IMG/VR virus record: IMGVR_UViG_3300021256_000079
Coordinates: 1 to 64,000 of that record
DNA: 64,000 nucleotides
Source: a virus
Taxonomy: Duplodnaviria; Caudoviricetes
Reading direction: 5' to 3' (one strand)
The position numbers and the translations under genes are program-made. How positions within the stretch are numbered: the first letter of the stretch is position 1; each line of letters opens with the position of its first letter. The notes below the pieces were generated by a model that saw only the letters and a program-made list of their open reading frames with translations, was not told the DNA's origin and ran no database searches. Below are positions 18,696 through 57,849 of this stretch, one piece after another.

Positions 18696-18764
18696 AGTTT
18701 CGAACGAAGTGAGAAGCTGTTTGAATAAAATGAAAACCTTCGCGTAAGAAACATGTGTCTTAAT

Positions 18765-18876
18765 GAGAAGGAAAGATTATTCACCCTTAAGACATCAAGG
18801 ATGGTATAGGCGTTAGAGACCTATTTGAGCATATGCTCACTGGATAATCAAAAGTGCTTGCGGAGGCTGCCTTCTC
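18765..18876 (+). ncRNA. Putative multi-branched small RNA
   Basis: Starts at the last G of motif 18741; GAGAAGG/CCTTCTC closing stem, GATTATTCA/TGGATAATC inner stem, three hairpins, then a T tract. Confidence 0.55.
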
Positions 18877-18963
18877 TTATTTTTTTCAAATCCAAAAAAT
18901 TCCCGGGTGGGATTTTTGGAAAAAAACGCGTCTCAAACATTCTAGATAATGGAGGTGATTTAT

Positions 18964-19278
18964 ATGGCAAAAAAGAAAAAGCCATATATGGTATTCGAGA
19001 CAAAAGAAGAGTTTAAAAAGCAATTTGACGAGATCTACAAATCTGGAAAAGAAGATGGATTTAAAGACGGATGTGTTTGGGTACTTAGCTATATGTATGA
19101 CTTATTTGATGGCATGTTTTCAAAAGAAGCAATGGACGCTGCATATTATGAAAAGCAACAGCGAAAAATTGAAAGTTGGAGGCGAGCTGTCGAAGAAAAA
19201 GAAAAACCATGGCCTGGTATGAAAAACTGGCTTGATTCATTACACGAAGAAGCAGATAACGGATCTAAAGACGAATGA
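18964..19278 (+). CDS. Hypothetical early protein
   Basis: GGAGGTG RBS after motif 18927; followed by hairpin GAGTCC-TGTAACA-GGGACTC and T tract. Confidence 0.7.
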   Translation: MAKKKKPYMVFETKEEFKKQFDEIYKSGKEDGFKDGCVWVLSYMYDLFDGMFSKEAMDAAYYEKQQRKIESWRRAVEEKEKPWPGMKNWLDSLHEEADNGSKDE

Positions 19279-19326
19279 GTCCTGTAACAGGGACTCTTCT
19301 TTTTTAAATGAAAGGAGAAATGAATA

Positions 19327-19650
19327 ATGCATATTGATTTTAATGAAAATGTAGACATTACTGTTTACGCTTGTTTTCACAAGAAAGTATATTACGAATC
19401 TTATGATGAAAAAGTTGAATTAGTTGATATCGAAGATATTTGTGACTGCGTATCTTTAGCACGGTGCTCAATAAATAAAATGATTCATAAACAAGATAAG
19501 GCTACTCATATAAACAATCCATATTTGTTTGATAGGACAATAGAAAATGGTGTCATTACATTTACAGCCAAACGTGCAAAAGAAGTTACCCACTCATATT
19601 GGTATGAGAAAGTTAAATTAGAATTGTGTTCGTCTGAGAAACATTTCTGA
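19327..19650 (+). CDS. Hypothetical protein
   Basis: AAAGGAG RBS. Confidence 0.6.
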   Translation: MHIDFNENVDITVYACFHKKVYYESYDEKVELVDIEDICDCVSLARCSINKMIHKQDKATHINNPYLFDRTIENGVITFTAKRAKEVTHSYWYEKVKLELCSSEKHF

Positions 19651-19857
19651 TAATGGAGGTGAAGCTCATGTTTAAAAAGATTAAAGAATGGTTGAAAAAC
19701 ATTTTTAAAAAAGCGGGCAATTTTGTTGATGATGACGAAAAGCTCGAAAAAGTAACAGATGTTTATGTATACCTTTTTGACAGAGATCGATAATAAATAT
19801 GAGGAGCTTAAAACGCTCCTTTCTTTTTTTTCTCGCGTAAGAAACACGCTTTTAAAT

Positions 19858-19930
19858 GAAGAGGACATGTAATGATAGACCCGCGTTCTATCGATAATTG
19901 CACGTGCGGATGTGCGACATAATCCTCTTT
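19858..19930 (+). ncRNA. Putative small structured RNA or leader
   Basis: Starts at the last G of motif 19834; GAAGAGGA/TCCTCTTT closing stem with GATAGA/TCTATC and GCAC/GTGC hairpins. Confidence 0.5.
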
Positions 19931-19953
19931 AATTTTTTTAGGAGGGACCAACT

Positions 19954-20223
19954 ATGAAACTGGTCATCAACAATTGCTTTGGTGGATTTGACATTCCCGA
20001 TGAGTACCGTTCAGAATTCGACTATTCTTGGAAAATTCAAAGAAACGATCCGAGATTAATTGAGTTAGTCGAAAAACTTATAAGTGAAGGTAAAAACGCT
20101 TTTACTTGCACATGCCTTGTTATTGTGGATGTACCTGATGAGGCAACGGATTACATGATTAGCGATTACGACGGTCAGGAATCTGTTATTTACGTAATTG
20201 ATGGCAAGCTCCACGTTTTATAA
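19954..20223 (+). CDS. Conserved phage hypothetical protein
   Basis: MKLVINNCFGGF, RNDPRLIELVE and YDGQE motifs. Confidence 0.7.
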   Translation: MKLVINNCFGGFDIPDEYRSEFDYSWKIQRNDPRLIELVEKLISEGKNAFTCTCLVIVDVPDEATDYMISDYDGQESVIYVIDGKLHVL

Positions 20224-20235
20224 GGAGGATATTTT

Positions 20236-20529
20236 ATGACAATCTATGTGATTCTCGAAAGCGGCCAAATTTATGGGTATAACAATCGTGATTATCCAGA
20301 CACATATTGTGATACTTTTGTAGATCTTGCAAAAAGTGAAGAAGACGCAAAACGTATCATAGACGAAAAAGTTAAAGACCGCGAGGGATTTCTTATGTCA
20401 ATGGATTGTTATATTAGGACCTCAGTTTGCGATGATGGTCCTTTTGAACAACAATTCGAACACCCCGCTATCTGTATAGAGGGTGCTTATGATGATGTTT
20501 ATTACTACTTTGTGACTCGTGAAATTTAA
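20236..20529 (+). CDS. Hypothetical protein
   Basis: AAGGAGG RBS. Confidence 0.6.
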   Translation: MTIYVILESGQIYGYNNRDYPDTYCDTFVDLAKSEEDAKRIIDEKVKDREGFLMSMDCYIRTSVCDDGPFEQQFEHPAICIEGAYDDVYYYFVTREI

Positions 20530-20727
20530 TCATGAATAGCTATCTGAAAAGAGGTGAACAAGATGCATAAACGTATTCGAGATATTTTACGTTTCATCAT
20601 ACGGCATAGAAAACTATCTAAATTTTTCCATCGATGGAAATGGTTTAATCATCTGTGCTACGAGGAAGCACAGGCAATTATTGGAAACAGATCGTGGAAG
20701 TAGCTTTCTGAAAGGAAGATATTTATC

Positions 20728-21225
20728 GTGAAAAGAGTCATTGTGAATATTATCGTGTGCGCGATCCTCGTTTCTCTTTTTACTTTTCTGATATTTACAG
20801 ATTCAGATGCCGAAAGTGTAACAATGTACGGCATCTGCGAAACTGGCTCTATCAACGTCAGAGTAAAGCCAAATGTGCATTCTGACGTTTGCGGTCACAT
20901 TGAATTTGGATGGGCTGTTGATATTTCAGATTCCAGAAAAGTCGGTAAAACAACCTGGTATAAGATCGATGGTTTTGGCGAATATGGTGTCGGATGGATT
21001 AATGGAAGATATTTATCCGAGACTGAACCGATAAAAACGAAGAATACTTATGGAAAAGTTAAAGCGAACGGACGAGTTGCCGTTTATAGTATAACTGGAA
21101 AAAGAAAGGGGTGGATTAAACCAAACAAAACATTCCAAATTTTAATTTATACAGAAGAGAGGTGTTTAACTGAGAAAGGATGGATCAAAACCAAGTATCT
21201 GGATATTTACGAAGGAGGTGAATAA
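20728..21225 (+). CDS. Exported SH3b-domain protein
   Basis: Signal/TM segment, then INVRVKPN...WYKI...GWINGRYL and a second GWIKTKYL. Confidence 0.7.
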   Translation: MKRVIVNIIVCAILVSLFTFLIFTDSDAESVTMYGICETGSINVRVKPNVHSDVCGHIEFGWAVDISDSRKVGKTTWYKIDGFGEYGVGWINGRYLSETEPIKTKNTYGKVKANGRVAVYSITGKRKGWIKPNKTFQILIYTEERCLTEKGWIKTKYLDIYEGGE

Positions 21226-21645
21226 CAACGAAAACGAGTGAGGGAAATAGCATCACCTACATTGAAAGCAGACGAATAGTCACAAAAGATTTTTTAAATG
21301 CCCTTCGTCAAGAACCTCGAGAAACAATTAGGTGCATTCTAACCGAAATGAAAAATGAGATGAATAATTTGTATCCGGGATGCATAGTCTACTATGTTCA
21401 TCCCGATCTTTTATTGAATGACGAAAATCTCGATGATTGCTATGAAATAACGGACTATGGCGAGCTAATTACTTGCCGTGTTAAGGCTTTTGTTGAAGGA
21501 GGATAATAATGCAGATCAATCATAGAAGAGATCTTTTTACATGGCAACTTGTGAATCCGGTTGGTTATCACCCAAAAAATAAAAAGCGGCATCCCTGGAT
21601 CGAGTATTTTAAATGGCTGTTTGGAATTAAGAAAGGAAATAAAAG

Positions 21646-22500
21646 ATGAACCGGATATTTGGTTGGCTACAGCAGATTACCTGTTCTGATGAAGATACCA
21701 GAAACAAAATAAGAAGTGCGATTTTTAAACATGGGCTATGGCTTAAGATCAATCATGAAAGGCTGCTTGATCCGGAAAGTCAATTTATAGAAAACAGACT
21801 TCGGGCTGATTTTTCAACACTTAAAATAATTTACAATCTTCGGATTCGAAACGCAGACTTGAGACATGCCATTTTTGCAAAAATGCATTTACAAGATGCA
21901 ATATTTGATGACTGCGAAATGTACGGTGTCGATTTTCACAACTGTTACTTATGCGATAGTACTTTTGTTTGTTCAAGTCTGCGAAACGCAAACTTATGCG
22001 GTGCAAACTTATTTGGATGCACCTTTTACGGAACCGATTTTGCAAACGCAAAAACTGATGAAAACACATGTTTTGAATACGCCGACCTATCCGGTGCTAT
22101 AAATGCTAGCGATTTAAACATTCCACTTAGATGTCCTGAGAAAGGAGCGTTCGTTGGATGGAAAGCATGTTATGCCAGAAGGGACGGACGTTTGATGGAA
22201 CGGGTAATAGTCAAACTGTATATTCCTGAAGATGCAAAACGATCATCAGCAACGACTGCAAAATGCCGATGCGATAAGGCTGTTGTGCTGGATATTCAGG
22301 ATTTGAACGGACACAGTGTTGCTTGTGACATTACGGCAGAATCAATGTTTAGACAACAGCCGATAGATTATGTTGTTGGAATGACTGTTAAACCTGTCGG
22401 TGACGCGTTTGATATAAATCGTTTCGCAGAGTGTTCAGCTGGTATTCATTTCTTTTACAAAAGAGAAGATGCGGTTTTATATGCTAAAGGAGAAATGTAA
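21646..22500 (+). CDS. Pentapeptide-repeat protein with DUF5758-like C-terminus
   Basis: ADLRH/ANLCG/ANLFG repeats; GAFVGWK...IVKLYIPEDAKRSSATTAKCRC...ECSAGIHFF. Confidence 0.8.
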   Translation: MNRIFGWLQQITCSDEDTRNKIRSAIFKHGLWLKINHERLLDPESQFIENRLRADFSTLKIIYNLRIRNADLRHAIFAKMHLQDAIFDDCEMYGVDFHNCYLCDSTFVCSSLRNANLCGANLFGCTFYGTDFANAKTDENTCFEYADLSGAINASDLNIPLRCPEKGAFVGWKACYARRDGRLMERVIVKLYIPEDAKRSSATTAKCRCDKAVVLDIQDLNGHSVACDITAESMFRQQPIDYVVGMTVKPVGDAFDINRFAECSAGIHFFYKREDAVLYAKGEM

Positions 22501-22836
22501 ATGCCTAGTATATATAGAGAAGTCTATTATAGGGAACCGGAGATATTCGTTACAGGTAGGTATAACCGAGATGTCTCCGTAGAACAGGTTCTAGCCATAA
22601 AGAAAGTACTTGTTGAAAACTTCGGTGCTCTCTTAAGTAAAATCACAATTGATTATTCAAAAAGAAAAGATGGAATTCATATAACGCCAACGGTTCACAA
22701 GTCGATCGAAAATGTTCCGTTTTACTTTAGGCATAGAGACTCTATGGACGACACAATGATATTCTATTCGAGAACCAATAAAGAAGACCCTAAAACCGTA
22801 ATCGTCGATAAAGACGGACAAATAACTACCAGATGA
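22501..22836 (+). CDS. Hypothetical protein
   Basis: Coupled to the previous gene; AAAGGAG upstream. Confidence 0.55.
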   Translation: MPSIYREVYYREPEIFVTGRYNRDVSVEQVLAIKKVLVENFGALLSKITIDYSKRKDGIHITPTVHKSIENVPFYFRHRDSMDDTMIFYSRTNKEDPKTVIVDKDGQITTR

Positions 22837-22850
22837 AAGGAAGATATTTT

Positions 22851-23162
22851 ATGAAAAAGATTGTTCTCATCCTTATGCTCGTCGTTCTCACTGCTACTAT
22901 GACATCGTGTGCTACAAGAATGCTTGGTAATCGAGCTGTCGGTGGATCCGACGTTCAGACCATGCACTACGCATACGTTTCGCTTCCCGGGAAAGATATT
23001 GTTGAAGGAAGGGTAACTCAGTGGCGAGATTATGACGATAGCGACGTTGTTCAGGTTCTCGTTAATGGGAAATACTACCTCACGCATTACTCAAATGTTG
23101 TGCTGGTGGCAGATCCTGAAATGGGATCAATTGGTTACGACTTAGGAGGCGGACACAATTGA
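22851..23162 (+). CDS. Lipoprotein
   Basis: MKKIVLILMLVVLTATMTSC lipobox-like signal. Confidence 0.7.
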   Translation: MKKIVLILMLVVLTATMTSCATRMLGNRAVGGSDVQTMHYAYVSLPGKDIVEGRVTQWRDYDDSDVVQVLVNGKYYLTHYSNVVLVADPEMGSIGYDLGGGHN

Positions 23163-23264
23163 TTTATATCGATGAATACATCTATGAAGGAATAATTGTC
23201 GTGATTGTATTAGCGGTTCTTTTAATTCTATTCTGGTTTCTAAAAGATAACTTATAAAGAAAGG

Positions 23265-23543: not shown

Positions 23544-23549
23544 GGAGTA

Positions 23550-24331: not shown

Positions 24332-24337
24332 TGATAT

Positions 24338-24871: not shown

Positions 24872-24873
24872 CA

Positions 24874-27477: not shown

Positions 27478-27652
27478 AAGCATTGAGAGATCTGCGTTTG
27501 CCGGCAAGCTAGGCGCAGATTTTTATTTGTTTCGAGGTGTAAGACCTTTATTGTAAAATAGTCCAAAAGGATGGAGGATCTGGTCGCGTGACGAACCAGG
27601 TCCTCTTTTTTTTCGCGTAATCAACATGCATTATAATGAGGAGGTGGGCTAT

Positions 27653-27997: not shown

Positions 27998-29002
27998 TCA
28001 CATACAGAGTGCCGCATACATGTCGTCAAAACCGTCTCCATAGAGGTTAATGTAGATATTATAGGTAACTTGTACGCTACTATGCCCCATAAGACGACTC
28101 AGAATCTTAACATCGATACCCTTATAGTAGCAGTTTGTCGCAAAAGTATGCCTAAAAGCATGCTCTCCGTAAAACTTTATTCCGCATTCCTTACAGAGTT
28201 TCTTAGTCTGATAAGAAAGCTTTTGATAAGTATACCTTTCGCCATCCTGCTCAAACACCCATTCTGTCGTTCGACTCTTTAAAAGGATATTTAATATGGC
28301 GATAGCCTTTGGTGTTAGCGGAATAATACGGTTGCTGCTTTTGCTCTTAGGAGAATCCTGATATTCTGCAAAGTTGTACATGGGATTAATAATCGTAGCA
28401 TGTACATGAAGCCGTCTTGTCTGAATTTGGACATCGCTCCATTTAAGAGCCAGAAGCTCTCCTGAACGAATACCAGTTTCGATCATGAAGCCTACAGCAA
28501 GGTAACCGACGCTGTATGGCTGAACGGATATTTTCTTAGTAATCTTCTCTTGCTCTTTATCCGTATATGCTATAATTTCGCGACTCTGCTTTTTAACTCT
28601 GCTTTCGGACGGAAGCTTAACGCCAACAGTCGGATCTGCTTGGATAATTTTCATGGCGGCTGCCTGTTTGAGCGGAGCAGTAACAATTTGAGAAAGTTTC
28701 TTGATGCTACTCATAGCAAATCCATCTTCAAGGAGAGAATTAATGAATCGCTGCACGTCAAAGAAATTAATGTCACCGAGTTTCTTTTCGGAAATCGGAT
28801 ATTTTGACATCGTGTCTCTTGAAGTGCACAGACGTTCATAAGAAGCCTTTTTAACAGAGTTCTTCTTAAATGTCTCAAGCCACATGTTGATAAATTCGAG
28901 TAATGTCATTTGATCGTTCATAAATGACCCTGGTGAACAATCCTCTATCCAGTTTTCAAGGTTCTGCAGTACGTCGTTAGTATAGATATTTGCGTCGTTC
29001 AT
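27998..29002 (-). CDS. int: Tyrosine integrase
   Basis: Core-binding domain, then TGIRSGEL (R), PKSKSS (K), HAFRH, LMGH, YNIY catalytic set; AAAGGAGG RBS on the minus strand. Confidence 0.93.
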   Translation of the reverse strand: MNDANIYTNDVLQNLENWIEDCSPGSFMNDQMTLLEFINMWLETFKKNSVKKASYERLCTSRDTMSKYPISEKKLGDINFFDVQRFINSLLEDGFAMSSIKKLSQIVTAPLKQAAAMKIIQADPTVGVKLPSESRVKKQSREIIAYTDKEQEKITKKISVQPYSVGYLAVGFMIETGIRSGELLALKWSDVQIQTRRLHVHATIINPMYNFAEYQDSPKSKSSNRIIPLTPKAIAILNILLKSRTTEWVFEQDGERYTYQKLSYQTKKLCKECGIKFYGEHAFRHTFATNCYYKGIDVKILSRLMGHSSVQVTYNIYINLYGDGFDDMYAALCM

Positions 29003-29089
29003 GTCAACGACCTCCTTTCGTTAAGAGGAATGCGTTTGGAGCGAGGTCGCGTGATCAACATGCCTTATAATGAAAGGAAGGTGTCTTAT

Positions 29090-29317: not shown

Positions 29318-29393
29318 AAAGACGGGCCACAAACGTGGCCTTTCTTTTTTCGCGTAAGAAACACTTTTAGTAATGAAAGGAGGTATCCTACAT

Positions 29394-29687: not shown

Positions 29688-29783
29688 GAAAAAGACGGGC
29701 CACAAACGTGGCCTTTCTTTTTTCGCGCTCAAAACACTCTATTAAATGAGGTATAACCTCAAGAAAAAAAGGAGGATATTTTT

Positions 29784-30257: not shown

Positions 30258-30342
30258 TTTACAGATATTTGGCACCTGTAACATGGTGCCTTCTTTTTTT
30301 TTCGCGTTCAAAACACTTGTAATAATGAAAGGAGGTATAGCC

Positions 30343-30543: not shown

Positions 30544-30617
30544 CAGATCGCCCGCAAAACGCGGGCTTTCTTTTTTCGCACCATAAACATTCATTATAAT
30601 GAAAGGATGGTGTCTAT

Positions 30618-30917: not shown

Positions 30918-31001
30918 AAGATGAGGACTTGAAACAAGTCCTCTTTCTTTTTTTTTTTTTCGCGTGATCAACATGCCTTATAATGAAAGGAGTGATTCGT
31001 A

Positions 31002-31280: not shown

Positions 31281-31372
31281 CGACTTTACAAAAGACGAGG
31301 ACTTGAAACAAGTCCTCTCTTTTTTTTTTTCGCGTGATCAACATGGACTATAATGAAAGGAGGCTTAATGCC

Positions 31373-31947: not shown

Positions 31948-32019
31948 GTCCGCAAAACGCGGACTCTCTTTTTTTTTTCGCATCATAAACATACCTTATA
32001 ATGAAAGGAGGGATTCACA

Positions 32020-32295: not shown

Positions 32296-32407
32296 CGACT
32301 TTACAAAAGACGGGCCACAAACGTGGCCTTTCTTTTTTTTTTCGCATCATGAACATGTTCATAAATGAGATGGAAACATCATCAAAGTATTTAGGAGGTT
32401 ATGAATT

Positions 32408-32824: not shown

Positions 32825-32932
32825 ATTGAGGGGCTTAAAGCAAGCCCTTCTTTTTTCGCGTAAAAAACATACTTTATGTGAAAGGGAGCTTGAACAAGGC
32901 TCCTTATATTTTTATCGAAAGGGGTTTTAACA

Positions 32933-34512: not shown

Positions 34513-34591
34513 CGCGTAAGAAACATGGTGTTTAATGGGAGGACTAAGGAAACTTGGTCCTCTTATATTTTTCTCGAAAGGAGTCATACCA

Positions 34592-36046: not shown

Positions 36047-36128
36047 TACTCGCGTAAGAAACACACGTATAGATGAGAGGACTAAGGAAACTTAGTCCTC
36101 TTTATTTTTATCGAAAGGATGAAAAACT

Positions 36129-39611: not shown

Positions 39612-39775
39612 CTATGAAGTACCAAATCAGAATTGATAATGGCCACTATAATCTGTATGTGAACGGACAATTTTATGGTAGTTACGACACATATTCCGAG
39701 GCCGAGAAAGACCTCGATGAACTTCGCACATAAAACATTCTTAATAATGAGGAAAGACCTTGAAAGGAGTACTGA

Positions 39776-40746: not shown

Positions 40747-40776
40747 GACACTCGCACCATGAACATGCTCTATAAT

Positions 40777-40940
40777 GAAAGGAGATGATTAAATTGGGAG
40801 TATAAACCCGACGGAGGGCTGTGAGCTTCGGCAAGATCAGTTTTTAAAACTAGCCGTCATAATAGCTCAAAGGTAGAGCGCCTGTAAAGACGAAACAGGA
40901 GACCCGGGTTCGAAGCCCGGAAAATGAAGATCATTCCCTT
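40777..40940 (+). ncRNA. Structured RNA containing a tRNA-like domain (40856-40927)
   Basis: D arm GCTC-AAAGGTA-GAGC, T arm CCGGG-TTCGAAG-CCCGG, 9-nt anticodon loop, broken acceptor, no CCA; closed by AAGGAGATGAT/ATCATTCCCTT. Confidence 0.7.
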
Positions 40941-40965
40941 ATATTTTTCGTAAAGGAGTGCAAAC

Positions 40966-42804
40966 ATGCGTAGACCAACTAGAACTCAAATACTTATGTC
41001 TAATCTTTACATATGGGTTAGACGGTACGGATGCGTAGATATTAGTCCTGGAATGGAAAAGTATCTGTGTGTATCAAGAAGGGTTCTTCTAAGTGCTGCT
41101 AAAAGCTTATGCAAGGATCCTGCTGATTTGAATAAAGTAATGATATTACGAATTGATGGCATTACCGTCCTGGTTACGGACGATTTTTCACTCAGTGACT
41201 TTGATTTAAGACTAATCCCAAAAGATCTTGAGGGGTACACAGATGGCAATAATAGTTAAAGGATATTTGAAATGCAAAATATGCGGAACATTCTTTACTC
41301 CAGCAATAACCGAGCTGCCTTGTTACTTTACAGAGAATGAAGTAGAAGACGGGGTAGAAGTCGGCGTTCCGTCGGAAAAGTGTGCAGAATGCAAACATTT
41401 TTTGAGCTGGAGATGCAGCTCACCCAGATGCCCAGCATGCGGATCTAATAACGTTAAAAAAGTATCTGGTATTGCAGTTAGAATTTCTAACTATTTTAGA
41501 AAGTGAGGAATCTATTATGGACCGTTATGCTAGAGTTTCTTTTGGAAGAGACGAAAAAGAAAAGCAACGAGACTTTCTTCTCGCCATGAATGGTGCTGAA
41601 ATCATTCAAGTCTCAGAAGAAGATATTGATAGATGGTATGAAGAAGATGTGAAAATGAATACCGGATGCAATAACTGCATTGTTTTGCATAATGACGAAG
41701 AAGTAAACCGTTTTATTTATGTAATGCGCACCTTCTTCAATGGCGTTCCGTATAAAATCACAAGTGATCCCGATAATGAAGTGTTCAAAGAATGCATTGA
41801 AAAGAGTAAAAAGGAGCTGTCATGAAGAGTTCTGCCAAAGATATTTGTGTCAAAGAGCGAATTAGCGATGAACTTATGAAGTTTACATTCGATTTTGAAC
41901 AAAAAGTCATAGATACTCTAGGTTTTACGACTGTTGGACACATCTTAGGCTACTTAAAAATTAACGAAATACCCAATAAGTATTGGAGTTATATTGTCTC
42001 AAAGCTAGATTTCATTAAATGGGACGAAGAAAGAAAAGAAACAGTAATTAGGTGCAGATATCGCACAAAAAACACCTCCTCTAATGAGAAAGGAGGTGAA
42101 TCTTAATGAGTCAGATTTTTCTTGAAATTGGCGACATTGAAAGCACTATGGAATTCATAAAAGATGCAAAAGAAGCTGGATTCCTGAAAGATATTTCATC
42201 AGATAAGGTTGAAAGTCTTTTAAAGGATAAACAGTTTCCGATACGTATCCAAATTGAATTAGATGATGTGTTTAAATTGGCGTCTAATCCTATTGTTAGG
42301 AAAATGTTTGGCAAAAGAATTGAGGACACAACAGTAAAGACCATTCTCAAGGTAATTAATGAGTAAGGAGGCTTAAATAAGTCTCCTTATATTTTTCGCT
42401 TACAACGAAGAAAGGAGTAAATGTTGAAGCAATGGGAAAGATACCTGCAACAACAATACGAGCAGGACCGAAGAAAACTATTGGACTATAGAGAGATTGA
42501 TATTGAGTTTAAGCAATTAATAATGGAGGCGACAATACTCGATGGACCAGTTGAACCTGATCCTGTCATTGATATTGTGCTCAATGATAGGGTTCATGAT
42601 GGGGAATGTGTACGGACAGAACAAAGTAAAGTATCAGATCGAGAAATTGTTGGACAGGATCATGAAGAGCCTGGGGGAGATCCAGAAGGGGACGGACGAG
42701 AAGAAGTAATCGATGATTACGACGATTCGTTCGATTCTTATTATGATGAAATTGTTGAATACAAGAACAGTAAAAAGACTGGTAAAAAGAAAAAAGGAAA
42801 ATGA
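40966..42804 (+). other. Six small hypothetical ORFs (40966-41259, 41243-41506 Zn ribbon, 41517-41825, 41822-42106, 42106-42366, 42421-42804)
   Basis: Coupled ORFs with RBSs. Confidence 0.6.
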
Positions 42805-45282: not shown

Positions 45283-46563
45283 ATGGAAGAAATGGTAAGA
45301 GTCCGGAGTGCTAAAGAGTACTTCAATGAATACGGACTTAATGGCATCGGTAAGGGTGCTGATAAATGGATGATCAGAAGGCAGCTTATCGATGCATTCC
45401 AAAAGGAAATGTTTGGACTTATCACAATTCGTATCCACAAAGATATTCCAGAAGGAGTTCCTGCAATTGGGAACCCAAGAGCAATCGAGATCATTAGGAA
45501 TGTAACCAGTGATACCCAGAAAAAGTGGGTAAAGCTATGTAACATGTTTGCTCAGTATAAGGAAACAAGCGGTCTTCTGAGTATCGACGATCTTAAAGGC
45601 GAGTATATTAAAGACGACGATACAGATGATACCGATGATGAAACACGCGCAGAAAACATGGAGTAAGATGAGGGAACCACAAAATAAAACTTTTATATTT
45701 GGAAGGAGTAATTTATTATGGCAAAGACTGTGAACAACAACGAAACGACAAAGGTTGAGGACCTGAAAGAAACAACGATGGAAGAAGAAATCAACGAAAC
45801 CGAAAAGGTTATCGAAGACAACAGCAAGAAGAAAAAGATCATTAAGGTGGTCATCGGTGCAGTTGCCTTTATCGCAACGAACGTAGCGAGCTTCTTCATT
45901 GGTCGTGGAACGGCAAACAATGACGACGATGATGACACGGAAAGTCAGGAAGAAAAGACCGAAGAATAATACAGATATTTGTGGTTCCTGAAATTGGAAA
46001 AGGCTAGGCAAAAATGACTTAGCCTTTTTCTTTTCCCTTTTTTGTCTAATAGGAGGTCGCAATGCTAGAGAATCTGACAAAAAAGCTAGCAGAGAAGATG
46101 GGGAAATCGGTCAAAGCGACGATTGAACCAAAAGTCGATAGCAAAATAGACTTATATTCTAAAATTTTGAGATTCGGAGTGTTGGTCTTTTTGTTTATCG
46201 AAGGGACTAAAAAGGCTACCAATGATATTTCGACTCCGGCAAATCCGAATCAGATTGTAATTAATAACTATCTCTATGAAAGAAAGGAGTGAAATGATGA
46301 ATAATGAAGAAATGAAAAGCCCTTTGGATGCAGCAAAATTCGTTACTGGGACTATTATATCCTTGGGTGCTGCAGCAGCGGTCGTTGGTATGATGCAAAA
46401 CCCTATTAAAAACGCAAAAGGACTTACTAAGCTTATGATGAAACTTGGCGTTTTCGTTATTGGATGTAAAGTCGGAGACGTTGTGGAAAAGTATTTTAAC
46501 GACACTGTTGACGAAATGGTTAAGGCATTTAACGATCTTAAGAAGGAGATGGGGAAAGCATGA
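45283..46563 (+). other. Four small ORFs, mostly membrane-anchored (45283-45666, 45718-45969, 46062-46292, 46294-46563)
   Basis: RBSs; single TM segments in three of them. Confidence 0.6.
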
Positions 46564-48345: not shown

Positions 48346-49098
48346 ATGACAACGATTAAAATTGGCGGAGTACTTCTTACTGGTTTTGCTGCTTACCTGA
48401 TTCTTAGTAAGGCAATTGGCACTATTGATAATTCCACAAAGAGGGCTTGTGAAGCTTCTAAGTGGAAGAATTATTACAAGTGCTGGAGCGAAGGTAATGC
48501 AGAAGGCGAACCCATTCCTCCTGGATATTCTAGAAAGTCTGATACATCAACGACCGGAGTCAATGAAAATAGCATCGATCAGGATCCTAATGAGGCCGCC
48601 GCTAAGGCCGCTGTAGACCTCATTAAGGAAGGTTTGTCAAAGCTGAAGGTTACCATTACAAAGCATGCAGAGAAGCAGGAAAAGGTCTCTGAAGGGCAAG
48701 AAAAGGCATCTGCAGTTGATATTGTTGAATCACTGAAAGATTTTGACACAAAAGCCTATCAGCTGCCTGACGATGCTCCTCCTGTTGATATTGATCACGG
48801 GTTTGACAGAAAGGCCGAGATCTGTAGAATCAGTAATCTTATCATTAGTATGACGAAAAGAAATGCTGATGAGGATGAACTTGAAAGGGCTATTATTCAC
48901 TCGATGGTAATCATCGACGCTGAAAAGTATCATCTTGATTACATGCAATCCTATATTGATAATCGTATTGATCAGCTCATCGAGAAGTATCAGCCTGAGG
49001 TTAATGATATTGCTAACGACGTGATCGATTACATGGAAAAGAAATACGAGGTTGTAAATAAAGTAGAAGAGGAGAACAAAGATGAAACCGTGGATTAA
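48346..49098 (+). CDS. Membrane-anchored protein containing a copy of an RNA-polymerase segment
   Basis: AGGAGG RBS; N-terminal TM; 89 aa (48727-48993) align ungapped to the RNAP segment encoded at 60467-60733. Confidence 0.75.
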   Translation: MTTIKIGGVLLTGFAAYLILSKAIGTIDNSTKRACEASKWKNYYKCWSEGNAEGEPIPPGYSRKSDTSTTGVNENSIDQDPNEAAAKAAVDLIKEGLSKLKVTITKHAEKQEKVSEGQEKASAVDIVESLKDFDTKAYQLPDDAPPVDIDHGFDRKAEICRISNLIISMTKRNADEDELERAIIHSMVIIDAEKYHLDYMQSYIDNRIDQLIEKYQPEVNDIANDVIDYMEKKYEVVNKVEEENKDETVD

Positions 49099-51266: not shown

Positions 51267-54200
51267 ATGCAGTGTGACTTTTTTAGAGTAACAACAGCAT
51301 ATGTTAAGAATGGAGTTGAGTCAGTTATTCCTGAATTCCTTGTTAAAACTAAGATCAACGATCTTATGATTCGAGGTGGAAAATTCTATGCCATTCTTAA
51401 TAAAAGAACAAACATGTGGGAAACGAATGAAGGAGTTGTTCAAAAGTTTGTTGATGAAGAGATTGAAGCTCTTTATCAGAAACTAACAGCTAATCCCGGT
51501 CAAAAGTTTTATATTCGTAAAGACATGGAGAGTTTCGGAAGTGGAAGTTGGAGTACTTATAAGAATTATGCTGCCAGTCTTCCTGACAATTGGCATCAGC
51601 TCGATAATAAGATCTGTTTTAGCGACACTCAGGTCACTCCTAAAGATTATATTTCTAAGAGACTTCCTTATGCTCTCGGTGATAGCGGATACGAAAGTTG
51701 GGATGAACTTGTTGGTACTTTATATTCTCCAGAAGAAAGAGAAAAGATAGAATGGGCCATTGGATCCATTGTCTCTGGAGATAGTAAAGATATTCAAAAA
51801 TTTATAGTTCTCTATGGTGATCCTGGTGCCGGTAAAGGAACGATTATTGAAATTATTAAAAAGTTGTTTCCTGGATATTATGAGGTGTTCGATGCAAAGA
51901 GTCTTAGCAGCAATAGCAATGCATTCGCATTCGAGCAATTTCGTACGAACCCTTTGATCGCCTTGCAGAGTGATGGCGATTTAAGTCGAATCGAGGACAA
52001 CACAAAAATTAATAGTCTGGTTAGCCATGAAACTATAGTGATGAATGAAAAAAGGAAGCAGAGTTATAATTTCACACCTAGATGTTTTCTATTCATGGCC
52101 TCAAATAAACCTGTAAAGATTACTGATGCCAAAAGTGGAATCATTCGAAGACTTATTGATGTTCATCCTACTGGCAACACACTTCCTAAAGCTAAGTATG
52201 ATAGCTTAATGGGTAAAGTCCAATTTGAACTTGGTGGAATTGCAAAACACTGCCTTGATGTTTATCAAAAGCTTGGAAAAAACTATTACAACGGCTATCG
52301 GCCATTAAGTATGATGTTCCAGACAGATGCGTTCTTTAACTTCATGAAAGATCGTTATGACTTTTTTAAGATTGAACATGCTGACGGAATTTGTTTGTCT
52401 GAAGCTTACATCGAATGGCAAAATTATTGCAACGAAACTGGCCTTGATATTCGTCTTCCTAGATACAAATTTAGAGAAGAATTGAAAAACTATTTTGAGC
52501 ACTTTGATGATCGCGTGTCAGTGAACAATGAAGATCATAGAAGTTGGTTTAGCGGTTTTAAGGTCGATCGGTTTCTCGGAAGTAGAGGTGGACGAAAAGA
52601 TATTCCTGTAAAGGGTAAAACTCTTGGTCTAGTCCTCGATCAAAAGGTTTCACTTCTCGATGAGATGTTGAAAGACTGTCAAGCACAGTATGGAGAAGAA
52701 AAACCTGAGGGCGGAAGTAAGCCAAGAATCTCTTGGGATGAATGTCAGACAACTCTTAAGAATATTGATACTTCTAAACTTCACTTTGTTCGTCTTCCTA
52801 AAGATCATATTGTTATTGACTTTGATCTTAAGAATGAAAAAGGTGAAAAAGACGCTTTACTTAATCTCGAAGCTGCCGATAAGTGGCCAAAAACCTATGC
52901 TGAATACAGCCAAGGTGGAAAAGGCGTGCACTTGCATTATATTTATGCTGGTGATCCTGAAGAACTCAAGGCTCTTTATGCAGATGGCATTGAGATTAAA
53001 ATCTCAAAAGGTAAAAGTAGTCTTAGAAGAAGGCTCAGTCTGTGTAATAACATCCCAGTTGCAACTATTAGTTCTGGTCTTCCTAAGAAAGAGGTGGTTG
53101 ACAATTTGCTTGACTTCGAAGCTGTTAAGGACGAACAGCATTTGAGAAACATTGTCAGTAAATGTCTTCGAAAAGATATTCAGCAGCCTTACACAACAAC
53201 GGCTATGAATCTTATTAAGAAGACTCTTGAAGACGCATATAACAGCGGTCTCAAGTATGATATTACTGACATGCGTCCTGCCATTAAAGGTTTCGCTTGT
53301 AAGAGCACTCATCAGAAAGAAACCTGTATGAAAATTGCCGAAGAATTGCATTATAAAGGAAAAGTCTTTGAAACCCTCATGGAAGGCTCTATAATGGCCT
53401 CTAAGCCGCCTGAAGAGGTAGAGACGACTAAATCTACGCCCCCTGAGAAAAATCGCTCAGAGGGCCTTTTAAATGCAAAAGAAGTGCATCCTGACATCAT
53501 TTATATTCCAAATGAACCTTCTAGCGAAGAACTTCCTGTATTCTTTGATATTGAAGTCTTTCCTAACCTGCTTCTTGTGAACTGGAAAGAGGCTGGCGAA
53601 GGTAAAGGCGTTGTGAGAATGATAAATCCCACAATGCAGGAAGTTAGAGCTTTGTTTAAGAAGAAGCTTATAGGCTTTAACTGTAGAAGGTATGACAACC
53701 ATGTACTTTATGCAAGAGCCATTGGCTATGATATTCCGTCTCTCTATAAGCTTAGTCAGAAAATCATCGCTGGAAGTAAGAATGCCATGATGGGTCAGGC
53801 CTATGATATTTCCTATACCGATGTCTATGACTTTGCAGCTAAGAAGCAAAGTCTTAAGAAGTGGGAAATTGAACTAGGCATTCACCATCAGGAACTTGGA
53901 CTTCCTTGGGATCAGCCAGTTCCAGAAGAAAGATGGCCAGAAGTTGCTGCATATTGCGACAATGACGTTATTGCAACTGAAGCTGTATTCAATCATTTGG
54001 CTGGTGACTTTAAAGCAAGAGAGATTCTGGCAGACATTGCTGGCATGACAGTCAATGACACAACCAATAGCCTTACAACCAAAATTATATTTGGCGATGA
54101 TCCCGCTCCTCAAAGACAGTTTGTCTATCCTGATCTTAAGAAAAAATTCCCAGGTTATATATTTGAGAATGGAAAGAGCTATCTTAATGGAGTTGAGATT

Positions 54201-55682
54201 GGCGAAGGTGGAAGAGTATATGCCGTTCCTGGAATTCATCATCATGTAACAACTTATGACGTTGCCAGTATGCATCCTTCTTCTATTATTGCCGAAAATG
54301 GCTTTGGCAAGTATACAGAACGCTTCAAACAGCTACTTGATATTCGTATTGCTATTAAGCATAAGGACTTCGAGAAAGCCAAAACAATGCTGGATGGTAA
54401 ACTTGCCAAATACTTAACCGATAAGAATCAAGCAAAGGCTCTTAGCCAGGCACTTAAGATTGCTATCAATAGTGTTTATGGTTTAACTGCTGCTGGATTC
54501 GATAACAAATTTAGAGATCCTCGCAATGTGGATAATTGGGTTGCTAAGAGAGGCGCTCTCTTTATTGAGACACTTAGGGTTAATGTAATTAAGCTTGGAG
54601 GCAAAGTTGTTCACATTAAGACAGACTCTATCAAGGTTGAAGATCCAACTCCTGAGATCACGAATTATATTCTGGACTTCGGTAAACAGTGGGGTTACAC
54701 ATTTGAAGTTGAGGACATCTACGAAAAGATGTGTCTCGTGAATGATGCTGTTTATGTTGCTCTTAGAGATAGGGAAGATCCGAGTTGGAAAGATGAATGC
54801 GAAAAGGCCAAAAAGAAAGCCGAAGAAACTAATTCAGTTTATCAAGAACCTACAAGGTGGACAGCCACTGGTGCTCAGTTCCAACATCCTTATGTCTTTA
54901 AGCATCTCTTTAGCGGTGAGGAAGTCACTTTCAGAGATCTGTGTGAAACCAAGACCGTTACAAGCGCTTTATATTTGGACATGAACGAAAATCTTAGTGA
55001 TGTAACAGAGTATGAGAAGAATCTAGACAAACTTGTAAAGAGAGCAAAGACACTTCTTAAAACCGAAGGATATTTTGGTTCATGGGAAGAATGGCCTGAG
55101 TGGAGAAAACAGAATCCTGATGCTCAAGATTCGCATGGCGGGGTTATTTATGGTGAACTTGACGATCTTGTTAAAGATCAAGAAGTTCTCAAAGAGCTTA
55201 TTGCAAAAGGACACAATTATATTTTCGTTGGTAAAGCTGGATGCTTCTGTCCTGTACTTAAAGGAACAGGTGGTGGCATCCTTGTAAGAGAAAAAGATGG
55301 TAAATTCAATGCTGCAACTGGTAGTAAAGGATTCAGATGGCGTGAAAGTGAAAGTATTTCTGGTGCTGACAGAATGAACATAATCGACATGGGCTACTTT
55401 GAGAATCTTGCTCGGGTTGCAAAAGAGGCTATTGAGACATATGGGGACTTTGATGCATTCGTAACAGAATCATCTGAAGTCCCCAATTATATTTCAATAG
55501 ACGAAGAAGCAGAGAAAGCCGCTAAGAAGTATGGAGAACCCGGTGTTCCTTCATGGCTGCCACCTTGTGGTGATGGCAAGTATGCTAATTGCTATGATTG
55601 TCCTCACTTTGATATTGAGAAAATTCCCCCTGAATGTAGAAAAGGTTATGACCTGACAGAACACTTCACAATTAATGTTTGA
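51267..55682 (+). CDS. Fused SF3 helicase - AEP primase - family B DNA polymerase
   Basis: GDPGAGKGT Walker A, FMASN; IVIDFDLK...SQGGKGVHLHY primase motifs; FDIEV, GFNCRRYD, YCDNDV exonuclease; DVASMHPS, KIAINSVYG, IKTDS polymerase motifs. Confidence 0.88.
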   Translation: MQCDFFRVTTAYVKNGVESVIPEFLVKTKINDLMIRGGKFYAILNKRTNMWETNEGVVQKFVDEEIEALYQKLTANPGQKFYIRKDMESFGSGSWSTYKNYAASLPDNWHQLDNKICFSDTQVTPKDYISKRLPYALGDSGYESWDELVGTLYSPEEREKIEWAIGSIVSGDSKDIQKFIVLYGDPGAGKGTIIEIIKKLFPGYYEVFDAKSLSSNSNAFAFEQFRTNPLIALQSDGDLSRIEDNTKINSLVSHETIVMNEKRKQSYNFTPRCFLFMASNKPVKITDAKSGIIRRLIDVHPTGNTLPKAKYDSLMGKVQFELGGIAKHCLDVYQKLGKNYYNGYRPLSMMFQTDAFFNFMKDRYDFFKIEHADGICLSEAYIEWQNYCNETGLDIRLPRYKFREELKNYFEHFDDRVSVNNEDHRSWFSGFKVDRFLGSRGGRKDIPVKGKTLGLVLDQKVSLLDEMLKDCQAQYGEEKPEGGSKPRISWDECQTTLKNIDTSKLHFVRLPKDHIVIDFDLKNEKGEKDALLNLEAADKWPKTYAEYSQGGKGVHLHYIYAGDPEELKALYADGIEIKISKGKSSLRRRLSLCNNIPVATISSGLPKKEVVDNLLDFEAVKDEQHLRNIVSKCLRKDIQQPYTTTAMNLIKKTLEDAYNSGLKYDITDMRPAIKGFACKSTHQKETCMKIAEELHYKGKVFETLMEGSIMASKPPEEVETTKSTPPEKNRSEGLLNAKEVHPDIIYIPNEPSSEELPVFFDIEVFPNLLLVNWKEAGEGKGVVRMINPTMQEVRALFKKKLIGFNCRRYDNHVLYARAIGYDIPSLYKLSQKIIAGSKNAMMGQAYDISYTDVYDFAAKKQSLKKWEIELGIHHQELGLPWDQPVPEERWPEVAAYCDNDVIATEAVFNHLAGDFKAREILADIAGMTVNDTTNSLTTKIIFGDDPAPQRQFVYPDLKKKFPGYIFENGKSYLNGVEIGEGGRVYAVPGIHHHVTTYDVASMHPSSIIAENGFGKYTERFKQLLDIRIAIKHKDFEKAKTMLDGKLAKYLTDKNQAKALSQALKIAINSVYGLTAAGFDNKFRDPRNVDNWVAKRGALFIETLRVNVIKLGGKVVHIKTDSIKVEDPTPEITNYILDFGKQWGYTFEVEDIYEKMCLVNDAVYVALRDREDPSWKDECEKAKKKAEETNSVYQEPTRWTATGAQFQHPYVFKHLFSGEEVTFRDLCETKTVTSALYLDMNENLSDVTEYEKNLDKLVKRAKTLLKTEGYFGSWEEWPEWRKQNPDAQDSHGGVIYGELDDLVKDQEVLKELIAKGHNYIFVGKAGCFCPVLKGTGGGILVREKDGKFNAATGSKGFRWRESESISGADRMNIIDMGYFENLARVAKEAIETYGDFDAFVTESSEVPNYISIDEEAEKAAKKYGEPGVPSWLPPCGDGKYANCYDCPHFDIEKIPPECRKGYDLTEHFTINV

Positions 55683-55704
55683 TATTTGAAAGGAGCTATT
55701 AATT

Positions 55705-56259
55705 ATGGCTAATTTTGCTAACAATTCTAACAACACCGCTCGTAAGTTCATCGAACCCCTTGTAATTAAGGATGCACACATTGTTATGAAGACTCGTAAC
55801 TTTAGTGGTAACAACCCTGGTAAGTTTGATCGTCCTGGTGCTCGCAATTTCTCAATTTTTCTTGATCCTGAGAAGGTTGATATTTCCAAGCTTCAGGAAA
55901 TCGGATGGAACATTAAAGTTGGAAAGCCCAACCCTGAAGATCCGGATGATATTCCTAGTTGCTTCCTTCGTATTCATGCTAATTGGTTCCCGCTTGAAGA
56001 TAGTCGGAGTGGCATGAACCCGATGATCATTAAGATTGTTGATGGTGAAAAGATTCGCCTTGATGAAGAAACGGTTAAGCAGCTTGACACTGATGAAATT
56101 CTTAAGTGCAATATTACTGTTACCGGTCGCTGGATGGAAAGTCCTACCTATACCGGTGTCGTTGCATATTTGAAGAAGTTGGTTGTTGAAGTTAGCAGTG
56201 ACGATGACATGGCTGACATGTTCGACGGAATGGATGTAAACGATCAGGCTCCGTTTTAA
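55705..56259 (+). CDS. Single-stranded DNA-binding protein
   Basis: RNFSG..RNF motif; acidic tail ending DQAPF; follows the polymerase. Confidence 0.7.
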   Translation: MANFANNSNNTARKFIEPLVIKDAHIVMKTRNFSGNNPGKFDRPGARNFSIFLDPEKVDISKLQEIGWNIKVGKPNPEDPDDIPSCFLRIHANWFPLEDSRSGMNPMIIKIVDGEKIRLDEETVKQLDTDEILKCNITVTGRWMESPTYTGVVAYLKKLVVEVSSDDDMADMFDGMDVNDQAPF

Positions 56260-56277
56260 TGAAAGGATGATATTTTA

Positions 56278-56508
56278 ATGAACTATAGAGACATGGCTGT
56301 TGCAGTTTGTAAAATTGCTGGTCAGGATCTTATAGACAGAGCGGAAGATTTGATACCAAAAGTCGAAGGCGTTAAAAACATTGATATTTGGATTAGAATT
56401 CCGTCTTTAACCGATGATCCTCTTTGTGTTCCAGAGATTGAGGTTAGCACTAATTTATATCCTAGAAAAGCAATCATTTCTAAGATTGCTAATCTTTCTG
56501 AAAATTAA
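56278..56508 (+). CDS. Hypothetical protein
   Basis: AAAGGA RBS. Confidence 0.55.
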   Translation: MNYRDMAVAVCKIAGQDLIDRAEDLIPKVEGVKNIDIWIRIPSLTDDPLCVPEIEVSTNLYPRKAIISKIANLSEN

Positions 56509-56518
56509 GTGATGACTT

Positions 56519-57694
56519 ATGGAAATAGAACTTTTTGAGCATCAGAAAGAAGCACTTAAAAAGCTGCATCCTGGCTCCATCCTTTGTGGTGGAGTCGGGA
56601 GCGGCAAAAGTATTACTGGGATTGCCTATTATATTCTAAGTGAAGTCGAGAATGTCAAAACACCTCCGAATCTATACATCATAACAACAGCTAGGAAAAG
56701 AGATACATTAGAATGGGATCATGAATGTGCTAGATTCGGACTTAGTAGATATTCTGATTGCAGTATCTATGGAATTCAAGTAGTCATAGATAGCTGGAAC
56801 AACATTCAGAAATACATAGATGTCAAAAATTCGTTCTTTATATTTGATGAGCAAAGAGTTGTCGGTTATGGTACATGGGTTAAGAGTTTCTTAAAAATCA
56901 CAAAAGCTAATCGGTGGATTCTTCTTAGTGCTACACCAGGTGATACCTGGATGGATTATGTGCCTGTCTTTATAGCAAACGGTTTCTATAAGAATAAAAC
57001 CGAATTTTGTAGAAGACACGTCATTTATAATCGTTTTGCCAAGTATCCACAGGTTAGTCGCTATGTTGAAGAGAAACGACTCAACAAACTGAGGAATGAT
57101 ATTTTAGTCACTATGGAATTTCAAAGAGAAACTGTTCAACATCATGAACGGGTTGTTGTTCGGTTTGATAAATTCACATATGACAACACTATGAGAGATA
57201 GGTGGAATCCCTATACAGATGCACCAATACAGCAGGCTAGTGAATTATGCCAAGTTCTAAGAAAGATTGTTGGCTCTTCACCTGAAAGATTCGAAGAGGT
57301 AAAAGCCATACTCGAAAAGCATCCTAAGGTAATTATATTTTACAACTATGATTATGAGCTTGAGATTCTTAGAAAACTTCCAACTGTTTTAGCCGAATGG
57401 AATGGACATAAGCATGATCCAATTCCTACTGGTGATCATTGGGCATATCTTGTTCAGTATTCGGCAGGTGCTGAAGGATGGAATTGTACAACTACTGACA
57501 CTATTATATTTTACTCCGAGAGCTATAGCTATAAGGCTATGATTCAAGCTGCTGGAAGAATTGATAGATTGAACACACCATACATAGATCTGTGGTATTA
57601 CCATTTGGTTAGCATGAGTAAAATTGATATTGCCATTGCAAGAGCTCTTAGGAATAAAAAGAATTTCAATGAGTCGGCTTTTGCTGCCTCGTAG
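56519..57694 (+). CDS. SF2 (SNF2-like) helicase
   Basis: GGVGSGKS, FIFDEQR, LSATPG, AGAEGWN, QAAGRIDR. Confidence 0.88.
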   Translation: MEIELFEHQKEALKKLHPGSILCGGVGSGKSITGIAYYILSEVENVKTPPNLYIITTARKRDTLEWDHECARFGLSRYSDCSIYGIQVVIDSWNNIQKYIDVKNSFFIFDEQRVVGYGTWVKSFLKITKANRWILLSATPGDTWMDYVPVFIANGFYKNKTEFCRRHVIYNRFAKYPQVSRYVEEKRLNKLRNDILVTMEFQRETVQHHERVVVRFDKFTYDNTMRDRWNPYTDAPIQQASELCQVLRKIVGSSPERFEEVKAILEKHPKVIIFYNYDYELEILRKLPTVLAEWNGHKHDPIPTGDHWAYLVQYSAGAEGWNCTTTDTIIFYSESYSYKAMIQAAGRIDRLNTPYIDLWYYHLVSMSKIDIAIARALRNKKNFNESAFAAS

Positions 57695-57849
57695 CGAAAT
57701 TTATATTTTTAGCCTCGCGCAAAAAACATGGACTGTAATGGAAGGAGAGGAGAATGCCTTTTTTAGGCGTTCAAATCTCCTATTTTTGTTCTAATCTCGT
57801 AGATTAGAACATGGTTTGTTCATTTTTCTCATTTTTGGAGGGACCACCA

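Follow-up and report, generated by a model that had tools for sequence, protein, structure and literature searches.

A repeated 25-bp tripartite motif as the candidate promoter of a single-chain two-barrel RNA polymerase in a Caudoviricetes genome

We analysed bases 1-64000 (the window) of the 94,754-bp virus record IMGVR_UViG_3300021256_000079 (Caudoviricetes), for which an earlier note, made from the letters alone, had pointed to a repeated tripartite motif of 25 bp. The motif, CGCR-N5-AACAY-N6-WRATG, is an oriented, multi-copy element standing at the heads of transcription units, after terminators and before Shine-Dalgarno (SD) sequences or leaders, and it is probably the promoter of the phage's own RNA polymerase, a predicted single-chain two-barrel enzyme encoded at 58763-61561. 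The in silico tests agreed with the proposal that this enzyme reads the motif: the predicted fold, the co-occurrence of motif and polymerase in relatives, the drift of the third motif block, the lack of host-type promoters, and the finding that the polymerase is the sole conserved early protein with recognisable DNA-binding (helix-turn-helix, HTH) motifs all point the same way, and on balance we favour it. We infer that transcription starts at or near the final G of the motif and depends on the phage polymerase. An orthogonal polymerase-promoter pair is the resulting prediction.

A pattern scan of the window returned 20 exact matches to the motif, all on the + strand, from 18741 to 57740. Matches occurred in none of 100 dinucleotide-preserving shuffles (expected 0), and the rest of the genome held no additional exact copy on either strand. 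A position weight matrix (PWM) recovered two further + strand sites, giving a total of about 22: the deviant copy at 32857-32881, with AACAT-N4-TATG and hence a third block 2 nucleotides (nt) closer, and a variant at 19631-19655 (20 bits) whose block 1 is CGTC. The earlier count of 21 copies, on the + strand only and with the deviant one at 32857, is borne out by these scans; the copy at 19631 was absent from that list. No site of 10 bits or more was found by the PWM in 1-18.7 kb or 62-94.7 kb, in agreement with the statement that the motif is confined to the early/middle half and missing from the first 18.7 kb. The block centres lie at about 2.5, 12 and 23, that is, one helical turn apart as had been described, and position 0 of the motif is T in 80-90% of copies.

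The copies stand in a close relation to terminators and ribosome-binding sites. Our own scanner found 32 terminator-like sites on the + strand genome-wide, and a second scan counted 42 on both strands between 18 and 38 kb against 12.7 expected. Many motif copies directly adjoin an upstream terminator hairpin and T-run with no gap, and since terminators abut its upstream side, the motif opens a transcription unit of its own. An SD begins 0-4 nt past the final G at 10 of the 20 exact sites, and there the start codon follows 13-20 nt past it.

All exact copies are on the + strand. The first (18741-18765) opens the first unit past the terminator that closes the late genes and is followed by a long leader without an open reading frame (ORF). 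At 18927-18951 the final G is also where the SD starts, with the start codon 13 nt further on, the copy at 19834-19858 lies immediately past a terminator and T-run, and that at 27614-27638 is preceded by a terminator and followed by an SD. The copy at 29048-29072 is divergent from a tyrosine-recombinase gene, and its 25-mer is identical to that of the copy at 30961-30985. A cassette of terminator, motif and SD is seen at 29351-29375, with further cassette members at 30303-30327, 30577-30601, 30961-30985, 31331-31355 and 31979-32003. The copy at 34513-34537 abuts the stop codon of the upstream gene, and those at 36051-36075 and 42062-42086 came from the same pattern scan. A conserved non-coding leader and a weak element resembling a transfer RNA (tRNA) at 40857-40928 lie downstream of the copy at 40753-40777. 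The copy at 45646-45670 heads a replication operon of about 12 kb (DUF6353 protein, primase-polymerase, single-stranded DNA-binding protein and helicase), and the polymerase-proximal copy at 57716-57740 heads the polymerase operon.

At most sites with longer leaders an RNA hairpin begins at the final G or 1 nt past it, and relatives share this pattern of SD or hairpin. Hairpins begin at the final G of the copies at 29724-29748 and 39725-39749 (both small), 32343-32367, 34513, 36051 and 42062. Two of them, both on the + strand, are followed by a T-run: that at 34537-34575 (-20 kcal/mol; terminator- or attenuator-like) and that at 36075-36111 (-22.7 kcal/mol). Directly past the polymerase-proximal copy, the hairpin and T-run at 57743-57790 (+ strand, -21 kcal/mol) begin 3 nt past the final G. 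Among the 5' stems that had been said to begin at the final G, those at 34537, 36075 and 39749 do so, whereas behind 18765 and 19858 the first helix begins 18 and 5 nt downstream. We folded RNAs from each offset at 93 sites in four genomes and counted 5'-end helices. One peak, of 22-26 sites, lay at offsets -1 to +1 and another, of 30-33 sites, at +7 to +9, the latter owing to sites at which the SD precedes the hairpin; the counts give modest support to a start at the final G. Folding the whole motif was uninformative on the register, being confounded by pairing of the CGCG block, as was folding with the first base forced to pair, which gave nearly flat energies.

The gene at 58763-61561 (+ strand) encodes a protein of 932 amino acids (aa) that matches PHROG 4291 (E=0) and has the sequence DFDGD at residues 546-550; the longer SGADFDGD is invariant across 21 homologues. 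Its AlphaFold model has a mean predicted local distance difference test score of 78.8. The solved structures nearest to it by Foldseek, with matches at probability 1.00, were Neurospora QDE-1 (E 4e-9), plant RDR2 and the phage polymerases P74-26 gp62 / P23-45 gp64 (E 1e-5). The protein thus combines the DxDGD metal-binding loop and the two-barrel fold that characterise the YonO/QDE-1 branch, and DNA-dependent RNA synthesis is predicted for it. HTH-like segments were located at about residues 58-82, 101-126 and 905-932, and residues 1-42 are predicted to be disordered yet are strongly conserved. Profile, motif and model evidence together identify the 932-aa ORF as a predicted two-barrel RNA polymerase with fused HTH motifs. 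A megablast search of the phage collection with the polymerase region returned nothing, and neither tblastn against that collection nor the PHROG scan grouped the protein with any Bacillus/SPbeta protein. The family, with 250 records in the phage collection searched, was earlier described as a putative polymerase bearing HTH domains at both termini in an actinophage supercluster and in Lactococcus and Faecalibacterium phages, with promoters unmentioned (bioRxiv 10.1101/842583), and the protein family of Lactococcus phage 1706 has been placed among YonO-like proteins (PMC2919709).

The polymerase operon lies on the + strand. It begins with a small nuclease gene (57850-58146; VRR-Nuc or RuvC-like in the annotation of relatives) and a Cas4/RecB-like exonuclease gene (58118-58747; DUF2800), and behind the polymerase gene it has a conserved gene for an 88-aa protein (61615-61881; phrog_4303). 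The phrog_4303 protein is acidic and may be a polymerase cofactor; its gene comes directly behind that of the polymerase in all relatives examined, phage 1706 and the actinophages among them (43-71% identity). Elsewhere in the early region, a 250-aa protein (48346-49098) matches positions 534-664 of the PHROG 4291 profile (E 6e-26). It represents a partial paralogue, corresponding to the part of the polymerase immediately behind the catalytic loop, and its tblastn matches in relatives fall within polymerase genes.

An IMG/VR search with the polymerase returned 44 loci at 37-85% identity. Motif copies in relatives were counted in whole records, forward/reverse, with up to 1 mismatch. The counts were 37/0 in G001, 31/0 in G002, 12/1 in G003 and 9/0 in G004 (in the last two the coding strand is the reverse of the record), and G006, G007 and G009 had 6-8 copies each, all on the coding strand; the motif read backward as a control gave 0 matches in the IMG/VR records. 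Among actinophages, Arthrobacter phage Correa had at least 8 copies of TCGCGTAAATTACACGGGCTATAATG-like sites, and copies accepted as real by sequence and position numbered 5 in Streptomyces phage RosaAsantewaa, 9 in Gordonia phage Kenosha, 5 in Microbacterium phage Count, 7 in Streptomyces phage Bing and about 14 in Arthrobacter phage Qui. They begin just past the tail genes and lie on the coding strand except for one reverse match in Count and two in Qui, and the backward-read controls gave 0-3 matches. Over the relatives, reverse-strand matches were at most 2 per genome, all at 1 mismatch. The PWM trained on this genome found nothing in phage 1706, where a diverged variant was found by eye in intergenic regions, with about 10 copies at the same spacing, after T-runs and before an SD.

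The motif co-occurred with the polymerase in every relative examined, over a dozen phages from two bacterial phyla. In most of them the small nuclease gene is preceded by a copy that lies 0.9-1.8 kb, mostly near 1 kb, upstream of the polymerase gene; in several distant relatives this copy was identified only by eye, and the diverged forms include CACGAAATTTACAATCCCTATTATG. Behind the polymerase-proximal copy, most relatives inspected have a hairpin and T-run of differing sequence, with the hairpin starting 0-2 nt past the final G where the register was checked. The hosts span Firmicutes and Actinobacteria, and their G+C content reaches about 69% against 45-57% in the phages. Given two host phyla and this gap in G+C, adaptation of the motif to a particular host sigma factor is unlikely.

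The third block bears a resemblance to the -10 element of sigma-A promoters. Positions 19-24, the would-be -10, read TATAAT in about 60% of copies here, and the third block of actinophages is CTATAAT. Position 20, the would-be -11A, is A in 60% of copies in this genome, and it is T in 70% of those in G001 and in 90% of those in G002. The block reads ATTAATG in G001, T(A/T)AATG in G002, TTTAATG in G006, TATTATG in G007, TTTTATG or TGTTATG in the polymerase-proximal copies of distant relatives, and TATAGTAG in phage 1706. All third blocks share an A/T-rich run ending in T, then G (or AG), then purines. The motif has no -35 element, a T-run or unrelated sequence occupying that position, and it lacks a TG extension: the TG often present at positions 14-15 is 3 nt too far upstream for an extended -10. 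Across the + strand intergenic regions of the whole genome there was no TTGACA-N16-18-TATAAT at 10/12 or better and no TGnTATAAT, and matches to the host consensus promoter were fewer than in shuffled sequence. With a sigma-A start 6-7 nt downstream, 10 of the 20 sites would lose their SD and the leader hairpins their 5' arm, much as the earlier note had argued for ribosome-binding sites and stems. The sites thus have neither a -10 with conserved -11A and -7T, nor a -35 or TG, nor a sigma-A start compatible with the leaders. On this evidence, the third block is not a sigma-A -10 element, and the comparison of relatives is decisive on this point.

The early proteins common to this phage, phage 1706 and Correa are the DUF6353 protein, two function-unassigned proteins, the primase-polymerase, the single-stranded DNA-binding protein, the helicase, the nuclease, the exonuclease, the RNA polymerase and the 88-aa phrog_4303 protein. 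Pfam and PHROG searches gave no sigma, anti-sigma, MotA-like or activator domain in the conserved early proteins scanned, most small early proteins being unscanned, and only the polymerase among the conserved early proteins has recognisable DNA-binding motifs. Block 1 tends to vary with the recognition helix of its second HTH. NES(S/T)xR in this helix pairs with CGCR in over a dozen lineages, actinophages among them, and SEGTVRN pairs with CGTA both in L031/L041 and in L043/L025, two lineages with polymerases sharing only 40% identity. (P/R)D(S/T)TLxS pairs with CACG in L033, L035, L036 and L040, and L044, 59% identical to this CACG group, has NESTLRS with CGCG. The pairing breaks down in phage Bing, where PDTTVGN stands with CGCA, and is ambiguous in phage 1706; in view of these two, the covariation of motif and HTH raised in the earlier note is suggestive only, with block 1 tracking the helix in several lineages and the independent events being few.

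If the motif is read in this way, the polymerase would bind one face of double-stranded DNA through its fused HTH motifs, reading CGCR and AACAY, and would melt the A/T-rich third block. RNA would start at or within 1-2 nt of the final G, and with a start there the transcript would begin with an SD or a 5'-terminal hairpin. The roughly 22 promoters would drive short early units, each with its own terminator, and the replication operon of about 12 kb, and the last of them (57716) would drive the nuclease-exonuclease-polymerase operon.

Transcription of the late genes can be considered from the genome layout. Nearly all genes are on the + strand. The structural genes, among them those for the terminase, the portal, a protease-capsid fusion and a tape measure of 2468 aa, occupy the record from about 62.4 kb to its last base and then its first 18.5 kb, and a strong terminator at 18652-18695 (+ strand) closes this late region 46 nt before the first motif copy. 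The early/middle block extends from 18.7 to 61.9 kb and ends with the primase-polymerase, the single-stranded DNA-binding protein, the helicase, the small nuclease, the Cas4-like exonuclease, the 932-aa ORF and the 88-aa ORF. A genome terminus resembling a cohesive-end (cos) site at 62040-62135 matches the contig ends of the complete relatives G001 and G004 and has the late genes just beyond it. By the position of this site, the 932-aa gene is the last large gene before the physical right end, and the late genes start just beyond it once the genome ends are joined. The late region of about 51 kb contained no motif copy, repeated intergenic element or host-type promoter, and no strong terminator lies between the polymerase operon and cos. 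The simplest reading of these absences is read-through from the polymerase-proximal promoter. After cos joining, the transcript of the polymerase operon may run into the late region, and the conserved leader hairpin and T-run behind this promoter may gate the read-through. Between the cos-like site and the first late gene lies a long, near-perfect hairpin (62181-62281; -43 kcal/mol, z = -6.9 by RNA folding). It has a counterpart at the same place in G001, with changes on both arms that appear to preserve pairing, and none in G004; it may serve in the control of the late genes or as a packaging site.

Several points weigh against a promoter for the phage enzyme. TATAAT is perfect or near-perfect here and in the actinophages, and recognition by host sigma-A is possible there. 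The pairing of HTH helix and block 1 has its exception in Bing and few independent lineages, and the hairpin-register statistic is bimodal (0 and +7 to +9). The leader hairpins with T-runs could be terminators of upstream transcripts. YonO, the only experimentally studied relative in kind, transcribes late genes alone from a single promoter (PMC5467207). The polymerase gene itself lies downstream of motif copy 57716, so a scheme with this polymerase only needs either an enzyme that arrives with the DNA or basal use of the motif by the host polymerase. The first polymerase is possibly packaged in the virion. The polymerase of phage 1706 (orf75), however, is not annotated as structural in its GenBank record.

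Virion delivery of an RNA polymerase has precedents in phages N4 and P23-45. We tentatively entertain, as possible rather than probable, a transcription programme wholly independent of the host, in which the polymerase would be packaged through an N-terminal LxHYG...WG sequence, injected, fire the roughly 22 promoters and reach the late genes by read-through; a 100-kDa polymerase with its own promoter-reading HTH modules would need no sigma factor. Nearly all homologues, those of phage 1706 and the actinophages included, have the N-terminal motif (LEHYGTPRHSGRYPWGSG, window 58763-58890), which resembles the DUF7211 tag and has the look of a short docking signal. Such a tag, LxH(Y/H/F)GIKGQKWGxRRFQNEDGS (Pfam DUF7211), is shared at the N-terminus by ten ORFs at genome 64.8-74.8 kb (L091:841-10831), around the large terminase gene and before the portal, with unrelated C-terminal parts. 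G001 and G004 have two or three genes with the DUF7211 tag, and orf7 of phage 1706, annotated as a virion structural protein, has a similar tag. The polymerase N-terminus scored below the threshold of the Pfam DUF7211 model here, in Correa and in phage 1706, so the packaging-tag idea rests on a short motif resemblance.

T4 middle promoters consist of a MotA box and a sigma-70 -10 element and are used by host polymerase with MotA/AsiA-type factors. The motif resembles them in having a -10-like block and a phage-specific upstream block instead of a -35, and it differs in that the -10-like block is not preserved as a -10 in relatives. A sigma-appropriation promoter of this kind, in which sigma-A would read TATAAT, a phage factor at CGCR/AACAY would replace the -35 and the phage polymerase would act on late genes only, appears rather unlikely to us. 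The frequency of TATAAT in this genome and of CTATAAT in actinophages speaks for it, and the location of the polymerase gene, at the far end of the early region and ahead of cos and the late genes, fits a host-then-phage cascade, as does the late-only role of YonO (PMC5467207); bootstrapping would also be solved if the very first transcripts need no phage factor. These points have to be set against the loss of the would-be -11A in G001, G002, G006 and the TTTTAT lineages, the lack of a -35 or TG, and the full motif carried even by the first promoters past the late terminator. A start 6-7 nt downstream would, as noted above, delete half of the SDs, the conserved G or AG behind the block is not required by the sigma-A discriminator, the proteins scanned include no family-wide candidate activator or sigma factor, and the late region has no second repeated motif or host-type promoters.

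Two further explanations are very improbable in our judgement. The motif might be the operator of a lysogeny repressor, by analogy with SPBRE/MrpR of SPbeta, where early promoters carry a repeated 15-bp MrpR operator (PMC10516654). The two systems share a repeated early intergenic element in a Firmicute phage with a tyrosine-recombinase-like gene nearby (PMC10516654), and here the role of reader would fall to the recombinase-like protein whose gene (27998-29002, minus strand) diverges from the copy at 29048. Its counterparts in G001 and G004 have only 22-23% identity, and G002, phage 1706 and Correa gave none; we rejected the analogy because the protein is not conserved alongside the motif. 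It also retains integrase-type motifs and matches integrases rather than MrpR; motif-bearing Cluster EL phages have been described as lytic, without a repressor or integrase (PMC7302621). Unlike SPBRE, the motif persists in such lytic relatives without the protein, is strictly oriented at a fixed distance from the SD, and has no other promoter to overlap. Equally doubtful is a role at the RNA level, as a processing or binding site in 5' untranslated regions, or as a mere recombination junction at which cassettes are shuffled. Strand specificity and a place just upstream of ribosome-binding sites would suit the former, and the identical 25-mers and reused terminators of the 29-33 kb array suggest module exchange. 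T-run terminators end right before many copies, however, so that the motif would seldom be transcribed, and its tripartite one-turn spacing is typical of a protein on duplex DNA. Some of the units that it opens are apparently non-coding (18741, and 40753 with the tRNA-like element), and the cross-phylum conservation of the motif at fixed positions goes far beyond what a recombination junction would need.

T7 and SP6 promoters are oriented repeats of about 23-25 bp with an A/T-rich stretch before a +1 G and a purine-rich initial transcribed region. The motif likewise forms oriented repeats of about 25 bp before transcription units, with an A/T-rich run, then G, then purines, and the phage 1706 variant contains ACACTATAG, as does the SP6 promoter core. 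It differs from them in the unrelated fold of the polymerase, in its three short blocks one turn apart, and in recognition that is presumably by HTH motifs and not by a specificity loop.

In function the motif resembles the promoter sets of phage-encoded polymerases such as those of T7/SP6, N4, P23-45, AR9 and phiKZ. By analogy, the system closest in kind to the putative motif-polymerase pair appears to be that of phage P23-45, whose two-barrel polymerases are gp64, a non-virion protein, and gp96, a virion protein (PMC10770324). In both, phage two-barrel polymerases transcribe, or here would transcribe, early genes from their own repeated promoter motifs, and in P23-45 the virion-delivered polymerase solves bootstrapping. 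Unlike the 932-aa protein with its three fused HTH motifs, gp64 has about 600 aa, and the P23-45 motifs, one AT-rich and one GC-rich, were experimentally mapped and are described differently. YonO of SPbeta is also a single-chain two-barrel DNA-dependent RNA polymerase of a Firmicute siphophage; it is reported to act on the late operon only, from one start site with an undefined promoter sequence (PMC5467207), whereas the candidate promoter here occurs about 22 times in the early/middle half. The late promoter of the AR9 non-virion polymerase, AACA-N6-T-A/G(+1) (PMC5449584), likewise belongs to a two-barrel phage enzyme and combines an AACA block with a downstream T and a purine start. The distance from AACA to T-G is 10 nt here and 6 in AR9, and the AR9 enzyme needs uracil DNA, reads the template strand and has five subunits with a separate specificity subunit; the resemblance may be due to chance. 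The pair described here differs from that of P23-45 in its single chain of about 100 kDa with fused HTH motifs, its tripartite one-turn element, and its conservation across Firmicute and Actinobacterial phages. We found no published description of the motif in the literature on promoters of two-barrel phage polymerases, DUF7211 and clusters AM/DJ/BI/EL.

YonO-like single-chain two-barrel polymerases are regarded as models of the ancestor of all cellular RNA polymerases. A candidate 25-bp promoter makes it testable whether such an enzyme recognises a duplex promoter unaided through fused HTH motifs, where it starts and whether it is delivered in the virion, and culturable test systems exist in Lactococcus phage 1706 and many SEA-PHAGES actinophages. 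If the assignment is true, it would supply a compact polymerase-promoter pair for Gram-positive hosts, unrelated to T7 and with natural specificity variants, and would explain phage movement between distant hosts. Host-independent transcription, if true, would help to explain the span from Firmicutes to Actinobacteria and a G+C content far from that of the hosts.

Some further features of the early region were observed. Between 29048 and 32900, nine consecutive units of motif, SD, small ORF and terminator reuse identical parts, one terminator being repeated at 29324, 29697 and 32312 and another at 30923 and 31297. The 334-aa tyrosine recombinase gene at 27998-29002 is the sole clear early gene on the minus strand, lies among shuffled single-gene cassettes and looks like an acquired module. 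A perfect TTGACA-17-TATACT sequence on the minus strand (29007-28979) was considered as its host promoter and rejected, being probably a chance match, as it overlaps the gene's start codon and a good SD.

Two leaders have no ORF. The approximately 160 nt behind the first motif copy (18766-18926) may be a small RNA, and their first 45 nt are conserved behind a motif copy of G001 (43667). Past the copy at 40753, about 190 nt (40778-40965) include the leader GGGAGTATAAACCCGACGGAGGGCTG, conserved in G001, G002 and G004, and the tRNA-like element at 40857-40928 is a weak Rfam tRNA match (32.2 bits) that ARAGORN does not confirm. In the late region, a tRNA-Ile gene (anticodon TAT) lies within the head-gene region at genome 67848-67921 (L091:3848-3921). 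The protease and major capsid protein are fused in one 670-aa ORF at genome 76225-78237 (L091:12225-14237), a protease-capsid fusion also reported for Arthrobacter clusters AM/AU and Microbacterium cluster EL.

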